Source: Paludibacteraceae bacterium | GTDB taxonomy: Bacteria; Bacteroidota; Bacteroidia; Bacteroidales; Paludibacteraceae | Direction of reading: 5' to 3' | Assembly (NCBI GenBank): GCA_017649925.1 | Contig: JAGCFX010000056.1 | Coordinates: 2,803-66,802, forward strand | DNA: 64,000 nucleotides | Shown: piece by piece, positions 39,250 through 53,119 of the stretch | Position numbering within the stretch: position 1 is the first letter of the stretch | How the letters are laid out: each line of letters starts with the position of its first letter | Notes under the pieces: generated by a model | What the model saw: only the letters and a program-made list of their open reading frames with translations | Databases searched by the model: none | What the model was told of the DNA's origin: nothing | Made by a program: the position numbers and the translations under genes

Positions 39250-39636
39250 ATGAACGAGAGAGAACGCATCGAGCAAGTGATTAAATCCCTAGGATTAACG
39301 GCTCGTCAGTTTGCAGCAGAGATTCGTGTGCAGCCTGGAACGATCAGTAATATGATGTCTGGGCGTAATAATCCCAGTTTTGAGGTCATAAAACGCATTA
39401 TGCAGCGTTATCCTACCCTTAATCCCGAGTGGTTGATAGTAGGCAAAGGCGAGATGTGGCGCACTGTGCCGGGAGAACAGGCCGGTTTATTTGATATTTT
39501 ACCGCCCGACCCAAGCAGTAAGGCGCATAATACGCAAAAAGAAGAGCCGCAGACTCCTGCAGCTCCGGCTAAACAGATAAAAAATATCGTTGTATATTTT
39601 ACAGACGGTACTTACGAGGAGTTCGTAAGACCGTAG
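39250..39636 (+). CDS. XRE-type helix-turn-helix transcriptional regulator
   Basis: N-terminal HTH LGLTARQFAAEIRVQPGTISNMMSGRNNPS. Confidence 0.8.
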   Translation: MNERERIEQVIKSLGLTARQFAAEIRVQPGTISNMMSGRNNPSFEVIKRIMQRYPTLNPEWLIVGKGEMWRTVPGEQAGLFDILPPDPSSKAHNTQKEEPQTPAAPAKQIKNIVVYFTDGTYEEFVRP

Positions 39637-39678: not shown

Positions 39679-39705
39679 AAAGCACTGCTCACTGCAGTGC
39701 TTTTT
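39676..39705. terminator. bidirectional terminator hairpin shared by the HTH gene and lon
   Basis: A5-AGCACTGC-TCACT-GCAGTGCT-T5. The lon stop codon lies in the loop. Confidence 0.7.
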
Positions 39706-42052
39706 CTAATACCTCGCTGATGTCCCGCACGTAGTGCAGTTTGAGGCCTTTGAGGTAGATATCGTTGATTTCCGCCACATCTTTGCGGTTATCCTCGCAG
39801 AGGATAATATCCGTAATACCTGCTCGTTTAGCCGCGAGCAGTTTTTCTTTTACGCCACCGATGGGCAGCACTTTGCCGCGTAGCGTCATTTCGCCGGTCA
39901 TGGCAATCCGTGGTTTGACCAGGCGTTTGGTAAATGCGCTGACCAAAGCAGTAGTCATTGTGATGCCTGCCGAAGGGCCGTCTTTGGGGATAGCGCCTTC
40001 CGGCACATGGATATGTACCGCGGTTTTCTCAAATAGTTCGGGTTTGATGCCCAGTTCCTTGGCATGTGCTTTGACGTAGCCGAGGGCGAGGGTAGCGGAC
40101 TCTTTCATCACGTCGCCGAGGTTACCCGTAAGGGTAAGGGTGGGCGTTTTGGAGGTAGAGAGGCTTGTTTCTATAAATAGTATCTCTCCGCCGACCTGTG
40201 TCCAAGCGAGGCCTGTGACCACGCCGACATATTTATTGGTCTCCCACGCGTCGCGTGAGTAGCGCGCCTGGCCAAGGTAGGAGCGCAGGTCATCGAGCGT
40301 GACAGAGACGTTATAATCCTCGCTGAGGGCTATTTTGGTGTCCACTTTGCGGCAGATGGTTGCAATCTGACGCTCGAGGGAACGGACGCCGGACTCGCGG
40401 GTATAATCTTCGATTATATGGGCGAGGATTTCTTTCTTGAATTTGAGTTGTGTGGACTTCAGTCCGTGGTTCTTTAATTCCTTTGGAATTAAGTGCCGTT
40501 TGGCAATCTCCTCTTTCTCTTCCTGGAGGTAACCGGTCATCTCGATGAGTTCCATGCGGTCGAGCAGTGGTCTCGGCACGGTGTCGAGGGTGTTAGCGGT
40601 GGCGATGAAGAGGACTCGGCTGAGGTCATAATCCACGTCGAGGTAGTTGTCATGGAATGTGCTGTTCTGCTCGGGGTCGAGCACTTCGAGCAGTGCAGAC
40701 GTGGGGTCGCCCTTGTAGTCTGCGCCTATCTTATCGACCTCATCGAGCACAAAGACGGGGTTGGAGGTGCCGCATTTCTTGATGTTATCAATAATACGGC
40801 CGGGCAGTGCGCCCACATAGGTACGGCGGTGTCCACGGATCTCCGCTTCGTCATGCAGACCGCCCAACGAAATGCGCGCGTACTTACGTCCGAGTGCCTC
40901 GGCGATGCTCCTTCCGAGACTTGTCTTACCGACTCCCGGAGGTCCGTAGAGGCATAGGATAGGGGACTTGACAGGGTTGGCTTCCTTCTCTTTTTTAGTG
41001 CGAAGAGTTAGTTGCCGCTGTACTGCAAGGTATTCGACAATCCTTTGCTTCACTTTATCAAGTCCAAAGTGGTCTCTATTCAGCACCTCTTGTGCATGCG
41101 TCATATCGTAGTTATCGTCCGAATAAATGCCCCACGGCAGCTCAAGCATGGTGTTAAGATAGTCGAGTTGGGTGGAGTAGTCGGGCGAGAAAACATGCAT
41201 ATGCTCGAGTCGCTTGAGTTCTTTGTTGAACTGCTCAGCGACGGACTGTGACCATTGTTTCTCCTGGGCGCGTTGACGGAGTTCCTGAACGGTCTGCTCA
41301 TCGTTGTCGCCGAGGTCTTTTTTGATGGTCTCAATCTCTTGCTGTAGGAAGTACTCACGCTGACGTTTGTCGATTTTCTCGGCTGTGCGGCGTCGAATAT
41401 CGGCTTTGATGGTCAGTTCCTCGAGGTCTTTCTGGAGGATGGTAAGGATTGCTTCTGCGCGCTCAGAGAGGGAGTGAATCTCCAGCAGCCCTTGTTTGGT
41501 GTCGGTAGGGATGTGGTACATCGAGCAGACATAATTGACCATAGTAGGGTCGTTATTGAGGCTCTTGATGGACATCTGCAGGCCAGCCGGGGCATCTTCT
41601 CGCTCGTTGAGTATCTTGACCACCGTCTCACGGATGCTCTCGGCGGTTGCTTTGAACTGCTTGTCGTTTTTGAGAGGCATGTGCTCCTCCATGACGATGG
41701 CATGCGCCTTGAGTTGGCCGTCTTCTTCGATGAAATCGGAGGCCTGGATACGGTGAAAACTCTCGAAGATAGTCATCATTGTGTCTTTGCCCATTTCGGG
41801 AACGGGTATGATCTGCAGCACGCGCGCCATGACACCGATGTTGTAGAGGTCATTTTCCTTGGGTTCCGCGAGTTTGCCGTCTTTCTGCGTCAGAATGATC
41901 AATCGTCTGTTGTCCTTGTTGGCAGCCTTGATGAGTTTGAGGCTGTTTTTCTTGGATACAGCAATAGGCAAGAGCACTCCCGGGAACAAAACGGTGTTCT
42001 TGATAGGGAGCACATCATAGAGGTTATTTTCCATTACAGCGTTATTTTCCAT
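39689..42052 (-). CDS. lon: ATP-dependent Lon protease (endopeptidase La)
   Basis: Walker [10 protein letters not shown] and catalytic PKDGPSAG. Confidence 0.95.
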
Positions 42053-42191: not shown

Positions 42192-42686
42192 TTACGAATG
42201 TTGTTTCATTCTTTCACGAAGAATCGCTTGTATGAAGTTGTCGAGCTTCGCATATTGTTTACGTTGCAGTTTGGAGGTATTTGCTTGCGGCTTTTTCTCA
42301 TATGGAGCTTCAGAGTCCGGTTGTTTGAACTGTGCGTAAAAACGTTTGCGGAAATCCTCCAGCTGTTTCCGCAGTTCAAGAATTTGCGTGCGTTCTGCCA
42401 ATGTCATGGCTGCCAATTCTTCGTCCGTATATTTGGCAGAATTGATGATTGAAGACGAAATACGCTTTGACTCGGCAAACAAATTAATGTTCGCCAATTC
42501 GGCGCCTTTCGGCGGATTTTTGGTATAATCTCGCGGATGAACAATTTCGTAAGATTCCTGTACGCCTTCTTTGAGAACCTTTCCCGTGGGTGCGCGGTAC
42601 GTCTTTTTCCGCATAATTGTTTTGCTGTCTTTCGCGTATTTCCCACGCATTGATTTAATCGGATCAAAAAACTCAATTTGACTCAT
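42192..42686 (-). CDS. hypothetical basic protein (164 aa)
   Basis: Long ORF with a K/R-rich composition and no recognisable motif. Confidence 0.5.
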   Translation of the reverse strand: MSQIEFFDPIKSMRGKYAKDSKTIMRKKTYRAPTGKVLKEGVQESYEIVHPRDYTKNPPKGAELANINLFAESKRISSSIINSAKYTDEELAAMTLAERTQILELRKQLEDFRKRFYAQFKQPDSEAPYEKKPQANTSKLQRKQYAKLDNFIQAILRERMKQHS

Positions 42687-42750: not shown

Positions 42751-43218
42751 TGAAGGGGGTGATTTCGGGGTGATTAGGGGGATATTTCCGGGTTATCAGG
42801 GAGCTTTTCCTGTTACGTTTTAGTAGGGTGCTACTCTACCCTTTCTCCCATTGTCGGATATCAATAAACTACTTTTGCGAGTGCAAAGGTACAACAAATT
42901 TTTGAAATGTGCAAGATTTTAACCGAAATAATTCATCTGTGCTTGCATAGGGAAGTTACTTCGGTTAAAAGATTGCCGTTTGCACAACAGTGCGAACGTT
43001 CCTTCGAAGGCTAGGTGTCCCCGTTAATCGGGGAAACCGTAACACGGGAAGGGGCTTTATTAAAGAAATGGGGGAGGAGGTCGAAGATACAACAAAAATT
43101 TTAAATATGCAAACATTTTGTGAGAAATCTTACATTTTCTATGATCTTGCCCATATTTGTAGCCACAAAAAAGGTGAGGATACTTCCCCACCCCTTTGAA
43201 ATTACAGGAATATGCGGT

Positions 43219-43686
43219 TTATCTTACTACCGGATATAGTTCTACTTTACCATCATCTGATAGAATCCCTTCATATGAAGGATAAAAAATATCATAGCCT
43301 GCCGGTAGATATAGAGTAGAAGGATCTTCTCTATATGAAATGGCATTTTGAATATGCGTTTCCGCAAATGTCCACCAATAACAACCGCCTTGCGAACCTT
43401 GCCATTCTGTGCTGCCGTAAAAGGCATCTTTAGCTACCAACAAACTATCCTCATATTCCCCAAGTTCCAATTTCCAGACCTTTTGGTCGCCATCAACAGG
43501 CATAAACGAAATTCGGACGTAAAGACTGCTATCGACGGTTCGTAGCAATTGGTATTCCTTGAAATACGAAGTATACTCTGCTGGATGCGAGCATGAGCAA
43601 AAAAGGAACAAACTCAAGGATAATAAAAAATAGTGATATGTATGCATAGTAATTCGTATATATTTCATCCATTTCAGCATTATCAT
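43219..43686 (-). CDS. hypothetical lipoprotein (last gene of the TerY-P-type operon)
   Basis: Lipobox LFLFCSC. An alternative start exists at 43647 (MHTYHYF). Confidence 0.55.
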   Translation of the reverse strand: MIMLKWMKYIRITMHTYHYFLLSLSLFLFCSCSHPAEYTSYFKEYQLLRTVDSSLYVRISFMPVDGDQKVWKLELGEYEDSLLVAKDAFYGSTEWQGSQGGCYWWTFAETHIQNAISYREDPSTLYLPAGYDIFYPSYEGILSDDGKVELYPVVR

Positions 43687-43709
43687 CTGCTGAGTGTTAG
43701 TTTATTCAT

Positions 43710-44630
43710 TTATCGGTAGATTGACGCAGGAACGCTAATTGCCACAAAGGTTGGACCAGGAGGAAATTCATAGGTTGGCATTGGTTTTTCTCCTAATAAT
43801 ACATGTCCGTAGTCGTCATAGGGATTAAAGGCTTTATAACCGTAATACTTTCTATACAAATACGCGTAATCACGGAGTGCTACAGGATTTTTTGCCTCAA
43901 GATAGAACCATCGGTCATCTTTTTCAAAATAGCAGAGGATTTCAACTAACGCATTAGCATAAGCGCTTTCAAGCATTTGTTCCCTTTTCTGATAGTTATA
44001 CTGATCTTTATGAAGACGAATATCTTCGTAAATAGTATACATCATCTGTTCCGCATTTTTGGTATACCCTTTTTGGGCGATGATTTTTTGTAATCGCTCT
44101 TGTTTATAGTCTTCTCTCTTCTGTTGTATATCAAAATTACCATTGCTATCTTTGATTATAAGGCAAAGAAGGACAAGCATTATAGCTCCGTACGTACACC
44201 ATACGTAAATATTCCAATTACCTATATCAAAATATTTAAATAGCAAAGTCAATAGATAGGTTGGCCCACCTATTACCCCGCCAACCAAAAGCGCACGAGA
44301 AATAATCTCATCCCATACTTTCGGAAAATAATCCCGTATATTCTCCCATAATGTATATTGGGGATAAGGCATTGCAGGATGCGCATCAAGCAGCTTCTGT
44401 TTTTCTGCTTTTGAGAGAGGTTGAGTTAGTGTCACCTGAAGCGTTGAGGGCTTTGGCGCTGACATCTCTTCAAACTTGCCTTCACGAATAAGGTCAAAAG
44501 CCATCTTTTGCACGTCCTTATTATTCCCGAAAATATCCGCTAATGCACTCCGAAGTCTTTCATCGGACAATTGCTCAAGATTTGGATACTTTTGCAAAAA
44601 TGCGCTTAATAATGTTGCTGAATGGTTCAT
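43710..44630 (-). CDS. hypothetical two-TM membrane protein with Tyr-rich C-terminal domain
   Basis: TM segments ALLVGGVIGGPTYLLTLLF and VWCTYGAIMLVLLCLII. The 5' end overlaps the PP2C gene by 56 nt (alternative ATG at 44504). Confidence 0.55.
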   Translation of the reverse strand: MNHSATLLSAFLQKYPNLEQLSDERLRSALADIFGNNKDVQKMAFDLIREGKFEEMSAPKPSTLQVTLTQPLSKAEKQKLLDAHPAMPYPQYTLWENIRDYFPKVWDEIISRALLVGGVIGGPTYLLTLLFKYFDIGNWNIYVWCTYGAIMLVLLCLIIKDSNGNFDIQQKREDYKQERLQKIIAQKGYTKNAEQMMYTIYEDIRLHKDQYNYQKREQMLESAYANALVEILCYFEKDDRWFYLEAKNPVALRDYAYLYRKYYGYKAFNPYDDYGHVLLGEKPMPTYEFPPGPTFVAISVPASIYR

Positions 44631-45453
44631 GATTAGTAACTTTATCAGGTTGGCTTATTATTCCGGAAATAGATATGTCGTCATGTGAACCTTGCTCAGA
44701 CATTTGTGGGAGGAATGCCTGTAAGTCCGTAATAGCAGTTTCCATATTCTCTTGTATCATTTTCCATATAGTAGAATAAAATGCGCACAGACGTTCATCT
44801 GTCGGATATGTATCATCTACACCATCGGAAGCGACAAACGCTGCGACGGGCAGATTGTCGGTCATATACACGAAGCGAAAGCGACTGATAGCATCATTAT
44901 CGCAAAGCGAGGTTGTACAGTTTAAGAAACAATCTTCGTCCCAAGGGATGGGCTGAGATAAATTATCCTCCGCATCTATAATGACACATTTGCCATCTCC
45001 TATCTGTAAGCCGAAAAAACATCTTGCTGTCCGAACTATCGCTATGAGTGTTGTTCCGTAGGCGAACTGCCAATTGCCGACTTCGATTTGTAGGCGATCA
45101 GATTCACTTAGCTGGCTCAATTCTTCTTCAGTAAACGGAGATGCCGTCTTATCTTGTTCAATCAAACTATTCCAATTAGAGATAATACTAGCAGCAAGTT
45201 GTTTCTGCCAATCTCCTTTTGGAAGGTCAGTCATATTGTTTGTGGAAATCACAAAGTCACGCAAGATAAGCTTGGTGATCACTGCTGCGTTACGCGAACC
45301 TCTGTCGCTACGGAAATAGCGGTCGTTTCCATGCCCGTCGGCAATGATGCCGATAGCATAGTCTTTGGTGAAATAACTCGTTGCATAATCCTGACATGGT
45401 TTGTTAGTCAGGATATGCGATGAGCCTCGTTCTATGACATGAAATGCATACAT
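44575..45453 (-). CDS. PP2C-family Ser/Thr protein phosphatase (TerY-P triad)
   Basis: Motifs CQDY, IADGHGN and ASDGVDD. Confidence 0.8.
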   Translation of the reverse strand: MYAFHVIERGSSHILTNKPCQDYATSYFTKDYAIGIIADGHGNDRYFRSDRGSRNAAVITKLILRDFVISTNNMTDLPKGDWQKQLAASIISNWNSLIEQDKTASPFTEEELSQLSESDRLQIEVGNWQFAYGTTLIAIVRTARCFFGLQIGDGKCVIIDAEDNLSQPIPWDEDCFLNCTTSLCDNDAISRFRFVYMTDNLPVAAFVASDGVDDTYPTDERLCAFYSTIWKMIQENMETAITDLQAFLPQMSEQGSHDDISISGIISQPDKVTNHEPFSNIIKRIFAKVSKS

Positions 45454-45454
45454 A

Positions 45455-46186
45455 TTAAAATCCGTTTGATAATGCCTCTAAATCTGCGTTCTCTTTGAAG
45501 TCCTTTACCTGTTCGGCAAACTCTTCCTGTTTGGATTCGCTATCCGAATTGGTATTCCCTCCTCCGACACCGATTCCGCTACTGCGCGAACCGATCTTCG
45601 ATGATGTGACACTCACAAAACGAATCATCTGTTTCAACGCTTCTGGCGTGTGAGCAGTAAGAACCAATTCAGGATTGCCTGTAAACTCTGTCAGGACCTG
45701 CATATCGGCATCGTCACCGATAGCAATAGCTACGCGAATGGCAACTTTGAACCATCTGTTTTCGCGAAGACTGTCGAGAGCTTTACGATATTCATCAGTT
45801 GGCTGACCATCTGACATGAGAAATAAGACAGGTGCGAAGTTCCCGGTGGGCGAATTAAGAAACTCATTACGGGAAAGTTTGCTATTCAATTCATTGAAAG
45901 CCTCTCCCATGACTGTCATTCCGTTAGCAGAGAGGTCTGACCACGTAAGTCCTTCCACATCCGTCGGTTTGAATAGCCATTGAGTGGAATTGTCAAATTG
46001 CAGACAAGCCACTTTGATTTGCGCATCGGCATTCTCAGATGAGATATCCGCAATTTCCGGTAACACCTCACGAATAGCGGTGTTTACTGCGGCGATTTTC
46101 TCGCCATCCATACTGCCCGATGTGTCAACAATGAAGAATAATGACATTTGACGACGAGCGATTTCTACTGTTTCTAATGGGTTCAT
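45455..46186 (-). CDS. vWA-domain protein, TerY-like (TerY-P triad)
   Basis: MIDAS FIVDTSGSMDG. About 240-aa cytoplasmic vWA protein with no signal peptide. Confidence 0.8.
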   Translation of the reverse strand: MNPLETVEIARRQMSLFFIVDTSGSMDGEKIAAVNTAIREVLPEIADISSENADAQIKVACLQFDNSTQWLFKPTDVEGLTWSDLSANGMTVMGEAFNELNSKLSRNEFLNSPTGNFAPVLFLMSDGQPTDEYRKALDSLRENRWFKVAIRVAIAIGDDADMQVLTEFTGNPELVLTAHTPEALKQMIRFVSVTSSKIGSRSSGIGVGGGNTNSDSESKQEEFAEQVKDFKENADLEALSNGF

Positions 46187-46205
46187 AATAATAAAATTTT
46201 AAAGG

Positions 46206-47486
46206 TTATTGTATGTTAGCTTTTATTTGTGACGAGAATGATATCTCTACATTCTTATATATAGGCAGGCCGGTATTGGGTTTTATTTCCAATTCCTTAC
46301 CATTCGGATAGACGGCCTTCCAGGTGTCGTTTGTGCGATTCATCAAGCCCCATACATTGGGATTGTTCTTGTTAACGATCACCTCTCCGGTAACCGTAAA
46401 AATATCGTCCGCAGAAGATGTCTGATTGGCATATAGCTTCATCTTCGGATACAAGGCCACTCTCTGCTTTCCGACCACCAGCATCAGTGGTTTCTCTATT
46501 GATTTCTGGCAATTGAAGCAGAGCGTGAACGTCTTGTCCAAATCCACAAAGGTTTCATGTCCACATGTGTGCGTAAGTGTTTGGCTGCGCAGCTGTGTAA
46601 GGATCTTGAGCCAATCATTATCGGATTTTCGCTTATTAGGATTGCGCAAAGCATCCTCAGCAAATGCTTCAATAAACGCCTGTTGGAAGAACTCCGGGAA
46701 CAAAGGCCAACGATTGAGCACATTGGTGTGTATCCCGCGCACGGGGCGGTTGCTGTCCTTTTGGGAATCATAGATGAAGATGGGATTTTCGCCATATACA
46801 TTCCGCTCAATGGCATCGTTCAAACACGGCACTTCTGCAACACGTTTGCCGTCAAACGGATGATTATTGAAGAAAAGCATGAATAATATTACACTCAGAG
46901 AAAAGTAATCCGAGAGGTTATTCGGAGTGCTGTTGCCGATAACTATTTCCGGAGCCATATAGCGGCACTTGCCTTTGATGCCGAGATTGGTACTCGGTGG
47001 GCACACGTTGTCATTATCGCATATCAGCACATCGCCGGTATTCGGATTGAAGAAGAAGTTTCCATCATTCAAGTCTTGATATGACAATCCTTTCCTATGT
47101 AGTTCACGGAAGGCATAAGTAATCTGAATAGCTGCGTTAATCATCGCATTCCATGAGGCGAAGCGCGCTTTAGCCACCAGAAATTTACTGAAATCGACGT
47201 ACTCTTTCGGCCGAATGTCCATTATATAACCAAATCTGTTGGACATGCTGACCGTTACCTGCGGCCACAAGAAATGTTGCGTAGGTGCGCCTTTCTTTAC
47301 ATTCTCTTCCAAATTACGTGCGAAGCGCTTGGAAGGATATTTGTTATACACCTTTAGCGCATAATCATTGCGGTCAATTGAGACGCGATAAACGGTTCCT
47401 TGACCACCGTCGCCAAGTTTCTGTTTTACTGTTGCCGTGCTCCCATTTGAGAGCGGAATGCGGGTGTTTGGAGTTAGTTCTTTCAT
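46206..47486 (-). CDS. Ser/Thr protein kinase with C-terminal Zn-ribbon plus beta-rich domain (TerY-P triad)
   Basis: Start at the ATG at 47486. G-loop GDGGQGTVY, YALKV, catalytic YQDLNDGN, YMAPE, then CGHE..CFNC. Confidence 0.8.
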   Translation of the reverse strand: MKELTPNTRIPLSNGSTATVKQKLGDGGQGTVYRVSIDRNDYALKVYNKYPSKRFARNLEENVKKGAPTQHFLWPQVTVSMSNRFGYIMDIRPKEYVDFSKFLVAKARFASWNAMINAAIQITYAFRELHRKGLSYQDLNDGNFFFNPNTGDVLICDNDNVCPPSTNLGIKGKCRYMAPEIVIGNSTPNNLSDYFSLSVILFMLFFNNHPFDGKRVAEVPCLNDAIERNVYGENPIFIYDSQKDSNRPVRGIHTNVLNRWPLFPEFFQQAFIEAFAEDALRNPNKRKSDNDWLKILTQLRSQTLTHTCGHETFVDLDKTFTLCFNCQKSIEKPLMLVVGKQRVALYPKMKLYANQTSSADDIFTVTGEVIVNKNNPNVWGLMNRTNDTWKAVYPNGKELEIKPNTGLPIYKNVEISFSSQIKANIQ

Positions 47487-47513
47487 AATTTCAATCTTTT
47501 TCCAACTATACTG

Positions 47514-47521
47514 CAAATATA
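47514..47521 (-). promoter_or_regulatory. -7 promoter box TATATTTG for the kinase-vWA-PP2C operon
   Basis: TAnnTTTG on the minus strand, 28 nt upstream of the ATG at 47486. Confidence 0.5.
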
Positions 47522-47609
47522 ATGCAAAAAAATGTAGTATTGCAGAAAAAAAGAAAATCACGTGGGAATATAATCAGACATAAGACCCTGAAATTCAGTG
47601 CGTATAACA

Positions 47610-47641
47610 AAATTACCCGACCGGTTGAAGTCAGGTAATTT
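47610..47641 (-). terminator. hairpin separating the two island operons (weak terminator)
   Basis: AAATTACC ... GGTAATTT 8-bp stem with a 16-nt loop, located 20 nt after the stop at 47662. The T tract is poor. Confidence 0.35.
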
Positions 47642-47661: not shown

Positions 47662-48900
47662 TTATTGTCTTGCAGCAGCTTCTCGCGCTTGATTAAAGCC
47701 TTTGTTGCTGTTTGAGAAATCTCCGGAAGATCCGAATGTCACCTTACCTATTTGCTGCATGGCTAGATAGTAATCATTCCGTGATAGCCTGTCTTTAGTG
47801 AAATAGCCTAATTTGTATTGAAGTTGATATAGCAAATTTCCGTAATCAGCAGCCGTCTTACATTCCTGAATTTTTTCACGGACCGCACGTCGGCACTTTT
47901 TACCCAAATCAGTTAATGCTTTGTTTTCATCCACGGGGTGGGGCTTTAACTGAACTTCAGTTACACGGTATTCAGGTATTTGGAATTTCTCGTATCCTTT
48001 GAATGAATGGATTTGCTGAATGATATATGCAAAGTACCCACGATGCCATTCTATCAGAGAATCCACAAAGTATGCTTGGCAATGCTCACGTAGGAATGTT
48101 TCATCTTGATTCAATCGGGTCACTTCCAATTGCGCCATTGCTATATACGTCATCACATCAATATTTTTTTCATCTACAGCATGAGGAGTTGTTTCAACAT
48201 AGCCTTTGATAGCTTGGGAAAACAGGAAAGCAAAGCTTTTGTAAATGCGTTTCGCTGACACGCCGTTGGTGTTGATGTCGTGCAGTTCGTTTAGATGAAG
48301 TCCTTCTTTATTGTCATTTACACTATAGTCTGCCGTAGCGCGATTATAGCGGAACGCATCATCATAGATAGTTTTATTCAACCATGTTTGATAGTATGCA
48401 TATCGCAACATTAACAGCATAAAGGGACTGACTACATGCATAATAGCCCCCATAAAATCCAAGTCTTTTTTTATGTCTACTTTGGAAGGATTGTAATTAT
48501 CCAATGCAGCCTCAGATGAACCGCATTCTTCTTCCATCATCTCGGAAAACATATCGAGGTTTGCCGACTCAAACGCCTCCCAAGAGATTAGTTTTTCAGG
48601 ACTTAAGAGATTTTGATATTCATCAACTAATAGCTTATCTTTCCAATAATCAAAAATAGGATATATTTCTGGATGATCAGTGAAGAACTTTTCAGAGCGG
48701 TTCAAATATTTCAACTCTATAGGCAATTGAAGAATATCTGTAAAATTCTCTTCGTTTTCCGCTCTATAAGCTATCCATAGGTCATTCAAACTATCTTCAG
48801 ACACATGATATGCGCCTATAGGAATATGCGAAAGTGCATAATGACCAAAACCATCGGTATAAATGTTTATTGATATCGTATTGAGCGTTTCAAGATCCAT
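47662..48900 (-). CDS. hypothetical protein (412 aa)
   Basis: Long ORF with no motif I can recognise. Confidence 0.55.
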   Translation of the reverse strand: MDLETLNTISINIYTDGFGHYALSHIPIGAYHVSEDSLNDLWIAYRAENEENFTDILQLPIELKYLNRSEKFFTDHPEIYPIFDYWKDKLLVDEYQNLLSPEKLISWEAFESANLDMFSEMMEEECGSSEAALDNYNPSKVDIKKDLDFMGAIMHVVSPFMLLMLRYAYYQTWLNKTIYDDAFRYNRATADYSVNDNKEGLHLNELHDINTNGVSAKRIYKSFAFLFSQAIKGYVETTPHAVDEKNIDVMTYIAMAQLEVTRLNQDETFLREHCQAYFVDSLIEWHRGYFAYIIQQIHSFKGYEKFQIPEYRVTEVQLKPHPVDENKALTDLGKKCRRAVREKIQECKTAADYGNLLYQLQYKLGYFTKDRLSRNDYYLAMQQIGKVTFGSSGDFSNSNKGFNQAREAAARQ

Positions 48901-48908
48901 AATAATGA

Positions 48909-49133
48909 TTACATATCTTCATATTGATTGCCATAAGGACCGTAGAAGCGGACACGCCGACCATTGCGGAAGGAAACAATGACTGCCCCACCCGCCCACA
49001 TCGCATCTACGATACTTGCGTCTGAGATAAGGTTATAACTCTGCCCTCTTGATGAGAAGACCTTTACCGTGTAGCCGTCAACAACTACATATTGATACTC
49101 GCTAAACTCGCGAGGCCATTCTGATGTATGCAT
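48909..49133 (-). CDS. hypothetical small protein (74 aa)
   Basis: ORF packed 8 nt from the downstream gene. Confidence 0.45.
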   Translation of the reverse strand: MHTSEWPREFSEYQYVVVDGYTVKVFSSRGQSYNLISDASIVDAMWAGGAVIVSFRNGRRVRFYGPYGNQYEDM

Positions 49134-49157
49134 AATAAAACTTCTTAATTGATGATA

Positions 49158-49454
49158 TTAATCGTCTAAATATTCTCCTGAACCATCAGGTTTATGCAGT
49201 GGTCCTGACCATAAGTAGTTCTTCGGTATTAACCGCAAAACTGTCTGATACTCCTCATAATAGAAATCACTATCGAAGTCCAACTTGCCTTCGTTGTACA
49301 TTTTACAACAGATAACGAGCGGATCATATATTTCATCTCTCGCCCGTTCTGACAAGGCATCCCACACATTCTGTGCAAAGTCGCCTGTTATCTCGGATAT
49401 CATATCAAGCATGACATCCTCACCTTCGTCAATTGGTATATATCTGCGGCGCAT
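49158..49454 (-). CDS. hypothetical acidic small protein (98 aa)
   Basis: ORF packed 8 nt after the LRR gene. Confidence 0.45.
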   Translation of the reverse strand: MRRRYIPIDEGEDVMLDMISEITGDFAQNVWDALSERARDEIYDPLVICCKMYNEGKLDFDSDFYYEEYQTVLRLIPKNYLWSGPLHKPDGSGEYLDD

Positions 49455-49462
49455 GGACGGAG

Positions 49463-50365
49463 TTATTTTTCAATGATAATTGGTGATAAATCAGTACTAT
49501 ATTCTCCAAACATTTCAAGGAATCGCTGTTTGTGCCCAATAGGGACAATAATCTCTTTTAACGAAGACAATGGCGTAGGAATTGGAAGAGGCTCATCATG
49601 ATGATTGTGGTAGGAATGCTCATTTTCAATGGCCGCAAAACCTATTTCCTTTATAGTACTTGGTAAGGATAATTCCTGTAAATTATCACATAATGCGAAT
49701 GCCCAATCTCTAATTATAGTAACATTCTCTGGAATTATAAGACTCTTTAGACTTGTACAACATTCAAAAGCATATTTATCAATGACTTTGATACTATTAG
49801 GAATGATAACACTTTTCAAACTTTTACAACCTGAGAATGCACTTTCTCCTATGCTTGTGACGCTATTAGGAATATTAACTTCTATGATGCCTAAACAATC
49901 TCTAAAAGCATTCTTTGCAATGCTTGTTACACTATTCGGAATCTCAATAGCTCCTGTAGCTAATATAGAACATGCCAAAAGTTGTGTTTTTGTTTTATCA
50001 CTATATACACAGAAACCATCCACGTAGCCATTTACACATCTAGCCCCAAAAGTAGAATCGGTTATTTTGCCCCAATAGACAATATTAAGAACCTCTCCGA
50101 ATGCTAAATCGCCGATATTAGTAACGTTGTTCGGAATAGTTAAAGTTTGCAAAGAAGAACAATACAAAAAAGCACCCGCCCCAATGCAGGAAACACTATC
50201 AGGAATAGTGATAGATGTTAAACCGCGGCATTGAAAGAAGGCATGTTTATCAATGCTTGTAACTCCATCAAGGATAATGTATTCCCCTTGGATGCTTTCG
50301 GGACAGTGTAGTAATGTTTTCTTGTCATCGGAGTATCGGACTCCTCTATTGTCAATGTAAGCCAT
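49463..50365 (-). CDS. BspA-type leucine-rich-repeat protein, no signal peptide
   Basis: Repeats of the form L.SI.IP.SVT.IG..AF..C..L. Confidence 0.75.
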   Translation of the reverse strand: MAYIDNRGVRYSDDKKTLLHCPESIQGEYIILDGVTSIDKHAFFQCRGLTSITIPDSVSCIGAGAFLYCSSLQTLTIPNNVTNIGDLAFGEVLNIVYWGKITDSTFGARCVNGYVDGFCVYSDKTKTQLLACSILATGAIEIPNSVTSIAKNAFRDCLGIIEVNIPNSVTSIGESAFSGCKSLKSVIIPNSIKVIDKYAFECCTSLKSLIIPENVTIIRDWAFALCDNLQELSLPSTIKEIGFAAIENEHSYHNHHDEPLPIPTPLSSLKEIIVPIGHKQRFLEMFGEYSTDLSPIIIEK

Positions 50366-50400
50366 AATATTTATATTTAGTGGTTATTAACCTTGAATGT

Positions 50401-51201
50401 TTATGCAAATATCTTTTCAAGCAGCTCGCGGAAATCATCACGGTCGGTAAAATGGAAAGAGTTAGGATATAGCGGACTTCCCCAACTTTGTTCTACCGCA
50501 TGAAGTTCCTTAATTTTAGATGAGACACTTTCATTCCTCGTTCTAAGATCTTCTATTATTTCAGAAAGACTATTGATGTCGTGTTCTCTCGTGTGTACGG
50601 CTTCTTTCGGCATACCTGCTAATGCGGGAGATTCAATAAATAAATCTTGATGCGCGTCCAAATATTTTACCATTTCAGGAATAATGCCCTGACTCTTAGA
50701 TTCCCGCCATTCGGCATAGGTGCGTTCCAATACGCAGTATTGGTCAAAATATTTCTCTAAATCGTCTTGCCCAATAGCCCATTCCTTCCCCGCAGAAAAG
50801 TCGTTTACCAAACAGATAAATGGTTTTTGAAGTTTGCGTAGTTGATAAACACAGTATTCCATTATTCCCATTTCAAGTTGCTTACCACATGAATGATATA
50901 TAATCCTTTTTGTTCGGTCTGAATAGGACTCGGGAAGATGGTCATGATTTAAGAATTCGACATTACCACTCCCCTGTTTTACAATTTCGCCATCAGGTAC
51001 TATTCGATGGCGACCACGGGACGGATGGTCTATGATAGAGATGGTGTCATGGCGATGATCTGTGAGGTTCGTAAGTTCTGCTTTGACTTCATACAATGTT
51101 TGATTCCTAGCGAACCATAACATTAATGGTTTGGTAAACTCTTTTTGATCACAATACTTTTGAATCAGCTGGTCTAATTCTGATAACTTTACAGTTTTCA
51201 T
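50401..51201 (-). CDS. hypothetical protein (266 aa)
   Basis: Long ORF with no recognisable motif. Confidence 0.5.
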   Translation of the reverse strand: MKTVKLSELDQLIQKYCDQKEFTKPLMLWFARNQTLYEVKAELTNLTDHRHDTISIIDHPSRGRHRIVPDGEIVKQGSGNVEFLNHDHLPESYSDRTKRIIYHSCGKQLEMGIMEYCVYQLRKLQKPFICLVNDFSAGKEWAIGQDDLEKYFDQYCVLERTYAEWRESKSQGIIPEMVKYLDAHQDLFIESPALAGMPKEAVHTREHDINSLSEIIEDLRTRNESVSSKIKELHAVEQSWGSPLYPNSFHFTDRDDFRELLEKIFA

Positions 51202-51222
51202 GACTATTTTAATTTAATGTTG

Positions 51223-52002
51223 TTATTCTATTTCAAATCCGCATGCTTTCACTTTCTCACATGTGTCGCGCAGGAGTTTCCGTATATCTCTCTCCTGATA
51301 GCCTTTTATAGCCTCTCTGAAAGCGTGCTCTGCTTCTGCCTTTCTTTCTAAGCCAGACAAACATTCTGCATAGGTATCCAAATGGTCCGGATTCTCCTTG
51401 CCTTGCTCCTCCATAGACAGAGACTTCTCAATATATGGCAAAGCTTTTTCGTACTCGCCCCATTCGCACAACAGCCAAGCCCAATTGTTATAGTCCTTCG
51501 GCGATTCCAATAGTGATTCACCATTAAGATAATAGGAATCCGCCTCGTCTATAGATTTTCCCGACAGCAATGCTATCTTCCAAAGATACAAACCGGCTTC
51601 GCTTACTCCTCCTTCTGCCAAAGCCTCATTGAAGAAATCTTTTGCTTCATCTAAACGTTGTTGTTCGTTATCAATCTTATCAACACGGTTGTCAAAAATC
51701 ATTCGACCGAGAAAGAGCGCATTTTTACTGTCGTACATATAAGCTTCGTAGTAATATTTCCATGCTAATTGATTATTCTCCTCTGTGTCACCTAATTTAT
51801 AATACACGTGCGCGAGGTTAAGACAAGCAGAATGACTTCCCGTATCAGCTGCGCGTTTCAACCAAAAGATGGCTTTTTCTGTATCAGGTTCAATGCCTTT
51901 CCCCCAATAATACATGCTACCCAACGTCAGCATTGCTTGACTATTCTCGCGCTCTGCCGCTTTGGTCAGTTTCTCCAGATTCTTCTCTTGTCGCTTTTTC
52001 AT
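51223..52002 (-). CDS. Sel1/TPR repeat protein
   Basis: Sel1-like units (LGSMYYWGKGIEPDTEKAIFWLKRAA, CLNLAHVYY) and C-terminal TPR-like helices. Confidence 0.7.
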   Translation of the reverse strand: MKKRQEKNLEKLTKAAERENSQAMLTLGSMYYWGKGIEPDTEKAIFWLKRAADTGSHSACLNLAHVYYKLGDTEENNQLAWKYYYEAYMYDSKNALFLGRMIFDNRVDKIDNEQQRLDEAKDFFNEALAEGGVSEAGLYLWKIALLSGKSIDEADSYYLNGESLLESPKDYNNWAWLLCEWGEYEKALPYIEKSLSMEEQGKENPDHLDTYAECLSGLERKAEAEHAFREAIKGYQERDIRKLLRDTCEKVKACGFEIE

Positions 52003-52028
52003 AATCGTATGTTTTTACTAATTTGGCA

Positions 52029-52036
52029 CAAAGTTA
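52029..52036 (-). promoter_or_regulatory. -7 promoter box TAACTTTG for the six-gene island block
   Basis: TAnnTTTG on the minus strand, 27 nt upstream of the ATG at 52002. Confidence 0.45.
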
Positions 52037-52171: not shown

Positions 52172-53118
52172 TTACCCTACTTGTACATCGGGGTTGATTT
52201 TGCGGATGAGTCCTTTGAGGACATCTCCCGGTCCGAATTCGTAGAAAACTACGTTGTTGTTTTCGTAGTTTGCGTTGTTTGCGTTATTTGCGTCGGCGAT
52301 CATGTTCTGTACGGACTGTGTCCAGCGAACGGGGGCAGTGAGTTGCTTGAGGAGGTTTTCGCGTATGACTTCCGGTTCCGTAGCGGGTAACGCCGTGACA
52401 TTCTGATAGATAGGACAGAAAGGTTTGCGGAAGTCGGTCTTGTTGATAGCCTCTGCGAGTGCTTCCGCTGCGGGTTGCATGAGGGGCGAGTGGAAAGCGC
52501 CACCGACAGGCAGCCGGAGTGCACGGCGCGCACCTGCCTCTTTCATGAGCGGACAAGCAGCCTCTACGGCATCGACATCTCCGGAGATAACGACTTGTCC
52601 CGGGCAGTTGAAGTTGGCGGCGACAACTACATGGTTTGAAGTAGTTTGAAGGTTTGAGCCTTCGGCTTGTTTGAAGTTGTTTGAGATTTGATCACAGATC
52701 TCTACGACTTTGTCGTCTGGGAGTCCGAGGACGGCGGCCATGGTGCCGGGGTTGGCTTCACATGCCGCCTGCATAGCTTTCGCGCGCGCGCTCACTAATA
52801 ATAAGGCGTCCTCGAATCGCAAAGCGCCGCAAGCGACGAGTGCGGAGAACTCCCCCAGGCTGTGTCCCGCCACCATGTCAGGGCGCTCGATAGTCATCAG
52901 ACGCTGCGCCACGACCGAGTGCAAGAAGACCGCCGGCTGCGTCACCTTGGTCTGCTTGAGGTCTTCCGCGTCGCCATTGAACATGACATCGGTGAGCGAG
53001 AAGCCAAGCAGCCTGTCGGCTGCCTGACACATCTCGCGTGCCTCCTTATGCGCGTCGTAGAGGTCTTTGCACATGCCGGGGAACTGACTACCCTGCCCCG
53101 GAAAAACAAAAGCCTTCA

Positions 53119-53119
<1 letters not shown>
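52172..53119 (-). CDS. fabD: ACP S-malonyltransferase
   Basis: FPGQGSQ and GHSLGEFSA. The start overlaps the ntpK stop by 1 nt. Confidence 0.92.
52240..52293 (+). repeat. 9/12-nt-periodic CGTWGTTTN-type repeat tract (copy B, in frame inside fabD)
   Basis: CG at 52240, 52252, 52264, 52273, 52282 and 52291. Encodes ADANNANNANYENNNVV on the minus strand. Confidence 0.8.

Follow-up and report, generated by a model that had tools for sequence, protein, structure and literature searches.

The TerY-P triad has been defined as a TerY-like vWA protein, a PP2C phosphatase and a Ser/Thr kinase that bears a Zn-ribbon at its C-terminus (PMC11090510), a definition of Anantharaman, Iyer and Aravind (2012) that is taken here from the summaries in PMC11090510 and PMC4978471. 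Kinases of the validated TerY-P systems are described as carrying a fused OB-fold (PMC11090510), and a variant from P. aeruginosa is reported to protect against Autographiviridae with most cells surviving, as followed by microscopy (bioRxiv 2022.08.12.503731). E. coli encodes a chromosomal kinase/PP2C/vWA cluster, YegI/PphC(YegK)/YegL, in which YegI, an integral membrane protein, has 646+ amino acids (aa) (bioRxiv 10.1101/819920, 10.1101/303594). Here we describe a triad of the TerY-P type from a Paludibacteraceae bacterium (GenBank assembly GCA_017649925.1, contig JAGCFX010000056.1), found in a stretch of 64,000 nucleotides (nt) referred to throughout as the window, together with an overlapping gene for a protein with two transmembrane (TM) helices, termed 2TM. 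The triad is already known. What is new is a clade-specific addition, the 2TM partner and its conserved overlap of dual-coding sequence; the five-gene operon in which they lie is a one-off.

A sequence-only reading of the region had proposed this operon, comprising kinase, vWA, PP2C, 2TM and lipoprotein genes. All five open reading frames (ORFs) are present, every one on the minus strand, and the coordinates, the spacers (19 nt between kinase and vWA, 1 nt between vWA and PP2C) and the 56-nt PP2C/2TM overlap have all been confirmed. The suggestion that such an arrangement had no prior description also holds for the searchable TerY-P literature, a small body of work that includes the 2012 survey through its summaries, and in which there is no membrane partner, no example from the Bacteroidales and no such arrangement. 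The elements of the operon are as follows.

47514..47521, minus strand: Bacteroidota-type promoter box TATATTTG, 28 nt 5' of the kinase ATG
46206..47486 (ORF 46206..47561), minus strand: Ser/Thr kinase, 426 aa (Pfam Pkinase, family alignments, AlphaFold2 (AF2) model)
45455..46186, minus strand: cytoplasmic TerY-like vWA protein (Pfam VWA; 32% identity to annotated TerY)
44575..45453, minus strand: PP2C phosphatase, 292 aa (Pfam PP2C_2), with a basic amphipathic C-terminal tail, NIIKRIFAKVSKS
44575..44630, minus strand: PP2C 3' end and 2TM 5' end, overlapping by 56 nt of dual-coding sequence; an overlap of 50-59 nt is kept in L011, L096, L097 and L109
43710..44630, minus strand: 2TM protein, 306 aa (homolog alignments, AF2 model)
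43219..43686, minus strand: small lipoprotein, 155-aa ORF with likely start M14 at ~43647; a variable cassette whose presence is not conserved alongside the triad
43163..43197, minus strand: terminator-like hairpin with U-run at the operon end (-20.6 kcal/mol, z=-2.9)
47610..47641, minus strand: terminator-like hairpin between the upstream operon and the kinase operon (-15.6 kcal/mol, z=-3.1)

The kinase, vWA and PP2C genes can be classed as a TerY-P-type triad by the definition in PMC11090510, because they encode a vWA protein, a PP2C and a Zn-ribbon kinase. The sequence-only reading had arrived at the same assignment, which agrees with the Pfam domains, the similarity to TerY and the gene order across relatives; the motifs it quoted for the three proteins are likewise all present. 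Judged by these motifs and profiles, all three catalytic or binding domains are intact. The kinase (Pfam Pkinase, E=1.8e-16) starts at ATG 47486 (MKELTPN), in agreement with the first residue of all homologs in the alignment, and its GDGGQG, ALK, DLNDGN, CDNDN and YMAPE motifs are invariant in 36 homologs, as is the unusual catalytic segment SYQDLNDGNFF...ICDNDN...YMAPE. The family is non-canonical, with Y-Q-D-L-N-D-G-N replacing HRDLKPxN and C-D-N-D-N replacing DFG. The Zn-ribbon (residues ~306-326) has been identified by motif inspection, no Zn-ribbon model in Pfam matching the kinase; C308, C323 and C326 are invariant in the 36 homologs, and the first ligand is His/Thr in the window kinase and Cys in most relatives. 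The AF2 model of the kinase (predicted local distance difference test score (pLDDT) 92, predicted TM-score (pTM) 0.92) has PDB matches to the kinase fold, and shows a beta-rich C-terminal domain (residues ~329-426) of ~11 short strands, which packs rigidly, together with the Zn-ribbon, against the kinase core. A whole-model Foldseek search returned kinase domains only, leaving this C-terminal domain unmatched, and its profile found nothing credible among PDB sequences and Pfam. The vWA protein (Pfam VWA, E=1.7e-13) has no signal peptide and carries the DTSGS and SDGQPTD motifs of a metal-ion-dependent adhesion site (MIDAS), while the PP2C (PF13672 PP2C_2, E=1.6e-28, aligned over 208 of 209 profile positions) retains DGHGN and SDGVDD.

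Relatives of the kinase are numerous, with more than 6000 at E<=1e-10, many of them full-length at ~50% identity, and at least 593 kinase-encoding stretches in a scan of one genome per GTDB species; the counts of gene order and of neighbouring genes among these triads rest on the best 80 of these at least 593 stretches. The 80 loci span Bacteroidota, Clostridia, Spirochaetes and Synergistetes, plus one Bathyarchaeal metagenome-assembled genome (MAG), and the order kinase-vWA-PP2C is kept in ~75 of them. In the Bathyarchaeal case (L052, Candidatus Bathycorpusculum soli), the triad kinase is 44% identical to that of the window, and the locus represents either inter-domain transfer or a binning artefact. 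The kinase has been found on only 9 viral contigs. The 120-aa TerY_C protein is encoded beside 22 homologous triads, mostly directly upstream, and tandem TerD genes occur in ~6-7. The window vWA protein is 32% identical (E=4e-17, tblastn) to a protein annotated as 'tellurium resistance protein TerY' in IncHI2 ter clusters, in which TerY is followed downstream by two hypothetical genes and a kinase gene.

Compared with the triad as defined in 2012, the window shares adjacent, co-directional genes for the TerY-like vWA protein, PP2C and Zn-ribbon kinase, and homologous loci carry TerY_C and TerD, but the window itself encodes no TerD, TerC or TerY_C and has no DNA-processing, McrBC or CoCoNuT partners. 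It differs further in the extra beta-rich domain past the kinase Zn-ribbon, in the order kinase-vWA-PP2C, and in having a clade-specific 2TM partner that is probably translationally coupled to the PP2C. The system of Gao et al. 2020 and the P. aeruginosa variant (bioRxiv 2022.08.12.503731) resemble it in having the same three domains as a three-gene cassette in a mobile-island setting; those validated systems are, however, from Proteobacteria, with no 2TM partner described, whereas the window is known from its genes alone. Set against the OB-fold of the validated kinases, the ~11-stranded domain of the window kinase found no match by which to class it as OB or other. The E. coli Yeg cluster is alike in gene content, and some close homologs of the window kinase have been named by the Joint Genome Institute (JGI) after the YegI-like COG, 'helix-hairpin-helix protein with kinase domain'; the link from YegI to the window kinase consists of such source names of close homologs only. 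Unlike YegI, the window kinase is a soluble protein of 426 aa, so that membrane anchoring, if any, would be in trans through 2TM.

Searches with PADLOC, which the sequence-only reading had recommended, could be run with limited return: the kinase matched only generic kinase models (PD-T4-6, mad6), and the vWA protein and PP2C were unmatched even at E<=10. In a control with the IncHI2 TerY, its kinase and a Prevotella plasmid triad, no TerY-P-named model responded, and bona fide TerY was as unmatched as the window vWA protein and PP2C, so the negative result carries little weight. The PADLOC library may be without TerY-P models, or have narrow ones only.

The case for 2TM as a partner of the triad comes from ~20 loci with upstream context (the window, L001-L006, L011-L015, L096-L099, L109, L110, L112 and L113), which represent ~10 lineages differing by >10%. 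In every one, a PP2C gene lies at most one gene upstream of the 2TM gene, in one of three arrangements: a PP2C/2TM overlap of 50-59 nt (the window, L011, L096, L097, L109), a gap of 26 nt (L014, L015), or an intervening gene for the WG-repeat protein WG288 or for a paralog of g266, a protein of the upstream operon (L001, L005, L006, L099, L110). Both reading frames of the dual-coding overlap are conserved, one specifying the PP2C tail (NIIKRIFAKVSKS-like) and the other the 2TM N-terminus, MxxSxTLLSALLQKYPNLEQL. This N-terminus is also conserved in loci without the overlap, which identifies the upstream ATG as the real start of 2TM. The PP2Cs of the clade, for their part, all terminate in a short amphipathic tail of basic character (IKRIFAKVSKS or WRRIFSKSKYN), again including those without an overlap, and this tail could be a docking or membrane-binding peptide.

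Synonymous sites are saturated between the window and most of its relatives. The 2TM protein evolves ~4x faster than the kinase and vWA protein, with non-synonymous divergence (dN) of 0.50 for 2TM, 0.25 for PP2C, 0.14 for the kinase and 0.13 for the vWA protein; against the closest island, L011, the ratio of non-synonymous to synonymous divergence (dN/dS) is 0.18 for 2TM and 0.04 for the vWA protein. A ratio of 0.18 points to purifying selection on a fast-evolving gene. Adjacency kept at saturated synonymous divergence, combined with this selection, is good evidence of a functional link between 2TM and the triad, and none of the collections searched yielded a 2TM locus without a triad.

The linkage has clear phylogenetic bounds. 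Where kinase identity to the window kinase reaches 78% or more, all 11 loci carry the 2TM gene; at 64% or less, none of the ~70 loci does. This confinement marks 2TM, on gene content, as a clade-specific accessory and not the general missing effector of TerY-P that the sequence-only reading had envisaged. The check it suggested, on whether the two downstream genes co-occur with triads in other genomes, comes out in favour for 2TM, within the clade, and against for the lipoprotein. The possibility of a membrane protein downstream of PP2C as a general theme was also considered and rejected: the genes that follow PP2C in distant triads are heterogeneous, and proteins with TM segments or signal peptides make up 18 of 53, which is no enrichment over the 31% background.

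The 2TM family is small, with 15 clusters recovered by a word-indexed search and 13 by an exhaustive profile search of 1.84 billion representatives; it was not found on viral contigs. The protein has two hydrophobic helices and a Tyr-rich C-terminal region, in which 142 residues include 19 Tyr (13%, against 5% in the proteins of the island). An AF2 model built with 15 homologs (mean pLDDT 71.7) opens with an N-terminal bundle of three helices (residues 2-50) and a disordered linker, where longer relatives hold an extra domain of ~45 aa; a helical hairpin (94-134 and 139-164) that includes both hydrophobic segments and a helical, Tyr-rich C-terminal domain (166-279, pLDDT ~88) follow. A short helix and, after it, the most conserved motif of the family, HPxxPYPxYTxWENIRDY, lie between linker and hairpin. 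Lys/Arg clusters lie before TM1 and after TM2, with an inter-helix loop of ~9 residues, and this placement, by the positive-inside rule and together with the model, would put both soluble domains in the cytoplasm. Foldseek found nothing significant for the model in the PDB (best E=4.0), and 2TM was unmatched in PADLOC, NCBIfam, PHROGs and Pfam, fragments included, at E<=10.

The fifth gene has a different history. The lipoprotein has a signal peptide and lipidation Cys, with homolog alignment favouring the start at M14, and only 5 homolog clusters are known; it was unmatched in the same four libraries under the same settings. A homolog 59-60% identical, a canonical lipoprotein, is encoded in L008-L010 (for example L009, 1724-6315) after a secreted MORN-repeat protein of 807 aa. 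An unrelated Ser/Thr kinase of 409 aa, which has a TM segment, is encoded close by, and neither a vWA nor a PP2C gene lies in the vicinity. The distribution suggests a mobile cassette that pairs with varied partners. DNA homology between the window and L011 stops at 43738, within the 3' end of the 2TM gene, and at the equivalent place relatives encode WG288 and/or sp182, a protein of 178-183 aa in which a signal peptide leads into an exported domain of ~120 aa, with a TM anchor at the C-terminus. Following 2TM in almost every locus, sp182 is missing from the window and L014, and no remnants of sp182 or WG288 were detected in the window by six-frame hmmsearch and tblastn. The idea that the lipoprotein is a diverged sp182 was rejected (hhalign probability 0.2%).

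From these comparisons, the consensus order of the clade can be written as kinase-vWA-PP2C-[WG288]-2TM-[WG288]-sp182, and the window appears as a reduced derivative of it that has taken in another exported protein in exchange. Of the five genes, it is the first four alone that make up a conserved set, and the notion of a conserved five-gene unit gives way to an arrangement specific to the window. A distant sp182 homolog of 138 aa (L034, 13234-13650) lies two genes past PP2C in another Paludibacteraceae triad, whose kinase is 46% identical and which lacks a 2TM gene; the association of sp182 with the triad may therefore be older than that of 2TM.

As to expression, a promoter box as noted by the sequence-only reading is present, at 47514-47521, but a single TATATTTG box serves the whole five-gene operon, and there is not one for each gene. 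The sequence TANNTTTG is found 60 times across the window, where 37.5 occurrences would be expected. With a single box, flanking terminators and no hairpin found inside the operon, including between the 2TM and lipoprotein genes, the five genes here plausibly form one transcript. The operon lies in a low-GC segment of ~10 kb (~42.1-52.1 kb; GC 0.38-0.43 against ~0.50 in the surroundings), bounded by lon (39689-42052) and fabD (52172-53119). The window's own island has no recombinase, and scans for tRNA and Rfam families showed no integration-site RNA at its borders; related islands have a serine recombinase immediately downstream, and their flanking genes differ from one island to another, which is consistent with mobility. 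Just past the operon terminator and still within the low-GC segment lies an orphan gene, g164 (42192-42686), for a basic 164-aa protein that has a homolog in none of the related loci. A 128-aa helix-turn-helix protein (39250-39636) is encoded beyond lon, outside the segment.

Upstream of the triad, the island holds a second operon that travels with it.

47662..52036, minus strand: co-travelling upstream operon of six genes, with its own TAACTTTG box at 52029-52036
51223-52002, minus strand: Sel1-repeat protein
50401-51201, minus strand: g266
49463-50365, minus strand: cytoplasmic LRR_5 protein, signal peptide absent
49158-49454, minus strand: g98
48909-49133, minus strand: g74
47662-48900, minus strand: g412

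Homologs of these genes precede the triad throughout the 2TM clade, in shuffled order, and g74 is 76-91% identical across loci whose 2TM proteins share 35-45%. Judged by gene content, the conserved neighbourhood in the clade extends beyond five genes to include the Sel1, LRR, g98, g74 and g412 genes. No family was found for g412, g74, g98, g266 or g164 in PADLOC, NCBIfam, PHROGs and Pfam (fragments too, E<=10).

Cytoplasmic repeat proteins recur far beyond the clade, with LRR_5 (19 loci), Sel1 and WG-repeat proteins alongside distant triads in other phyla, as do a transglutaminase-like protein, PG_binding_1 and a radical-SAM enzyme. A Clostridial variant in Ruminococcus, Lachnospiraceae and Clostridia MAGs (L030, L046, L050, L093) has the order ~880-aa 10-TM protein, two TerD, kinase, vWA, PP2C, LRR_5 and transglutaminase-like protein, and the pair of cytoplasmic LRR and transglutaminase-fold proteins is a recurring candidate for an output module. 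In Bacteroidales/Muribaculaceae (L067, L070, L071, L074, L078, L081) the triad is extended as (TerY_C)-kinase-vWA-PP2C-WG-repeat-PG_binding_1-99-aa-radical SAM-290-aa protein, and in L001 and L002 a radical SAM/SPASM gene lies upstream.

The explanation we favour, with a probability of roughly 55%, is that 2TM is a membrane-anchored adaptor or substrate of a TerY-P-type switch, linking it with an exported partner. The switch would consist of the Zn-ribbon kinase, the MIDAS vWA protein and the PP2C, with kinase and phosphatase toggling the Ser/Thr phosphorylation of a partner and the vWA protein binding one. Among gut and rumen Bacteroidales, one narrow clade has the triad with an acquired, dedicated inner-membrane partner, 2TM, which would be made in step with the PP2C, since the 56-nt overlap suggests that the two are probably translationally coupled. 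2TM would either localise the switch at the membrane or itself be toggled by it, and would connect it with an exported protein, usually sp182; in the window, which lacks both WG288 and sp182, their place is taken by an unrelated lipoprotein cassette. Analogy with the validated systems makes a part in inter-genomic conflict or phage defence plausible. Several observations weigh against this explanation. 2TM matches no known domain or fold, so its role as adaptor or substrate is drawn from context; its gene is absent from most triads, so that the core switch can do without it; within the clade, conservation of the upstream operon is about as good, so that the functional unit may be larger or otherwise partitioned; and the defence models of PADLOC are matched by none of vWA, PP2C and 2TM, although the same is true of bona fide TerY. 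A more specific version, in which 2TM, the exported, TM-anchored sp182 and the cytoplasmic WG288 make up a trans-membrane signalling module physically wired to the TerY-P switch, can be put forward only tentatively.

A related but doubtful alternative reverses the direction of the signal, with 2TM and sp182 (here the lipoprotein) acting as an envelope sensor that feeds the kinase/PP2C switch, responding for example to phage adsorption or envelope stress. Such a sensor would accord with the regular presence of an exported, TM-anchored sp182 after 2TM, and with the fact that the gene after 2TM always encodes an exported protein, even if non-homologous; the fast evolution of 2TM, and the integral membrane nature of YegI, encoded beside PphC and YegL, point the same way. 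It fits less well with the absence of sp182 from the window and L014, with the inability of a lipid-anchored protein to form TM-TM contacts, and with the very short periplasmic loop of 2TM.

The proposal of the sequence-only reading, that 2TM is the missing TerY-P effector and acts by membrane disruption during abortive infection, with the lipoprotein as part of the system, now seems quite unlikely. The tight linkage to the triad, a position toward the operon 3' end, where effectors are frequent, and the Abi_2 gene and recombinases that adjoin related islands would all suit an effector. A general effector should not, however, be limited to one small clade and absent from ~70 other triads, nor are membrane proteins enriched after PP2C; with only two TM helices, a predicted periplasmic loop of ~9 residues and no match in PADLOC, Pfam, PHROGs or the PDB, 2TM offers little that resembles a membrane-disrupting protein, most cells protected by the P. 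aeruginosa variant survive, and the lipoprotein is not conserved with the triad. That the 2TM and lipoprotein genes are both unrelated cargo hitch-hiking on the mobile island is improbable: the island is indeed a mosaic, with WG288, g266, sp182 and lipoprotein genes shuffled, lost or replaced among relatives, and hitch-hiking is favoured for the lipoprotein, which behaves as a free cassette, but it is unlikely for the 2TM gene, whose adjacency survives three arrangements at saturated synonymous divergence, whose dual-coding overlap is conserved, and which has no triad-free locus in any collection.

Tied strictly to the triad, anchored in the membrane and probably translated in step with the phosphatase, 2TM is a concrete, testable candidate interactor for the switch. 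TerY-P triads are widespread, at least 593 GTDB stretches encoding this kinase family alone, and one version has been validated experimentally as anti-phage. The value of the finding is limited, since a partner restricted to one small uncultured clade and missing from most triads leaves the general mechanism unexplained; the wider pattern, in which triads across phyla recruit varied cytoplasmic repeat proteins (LRR_5, Sel1, WG) and accessories, is possibly more informative. If 2TM, sp182 and WG288 do form a signalling module, they would give, for the first time, a concrete hold on the input or target of a TerY-P triad, and the conserved PP2C/2TM overlap would set the stoichiometry of phosphatase to membrane partner.

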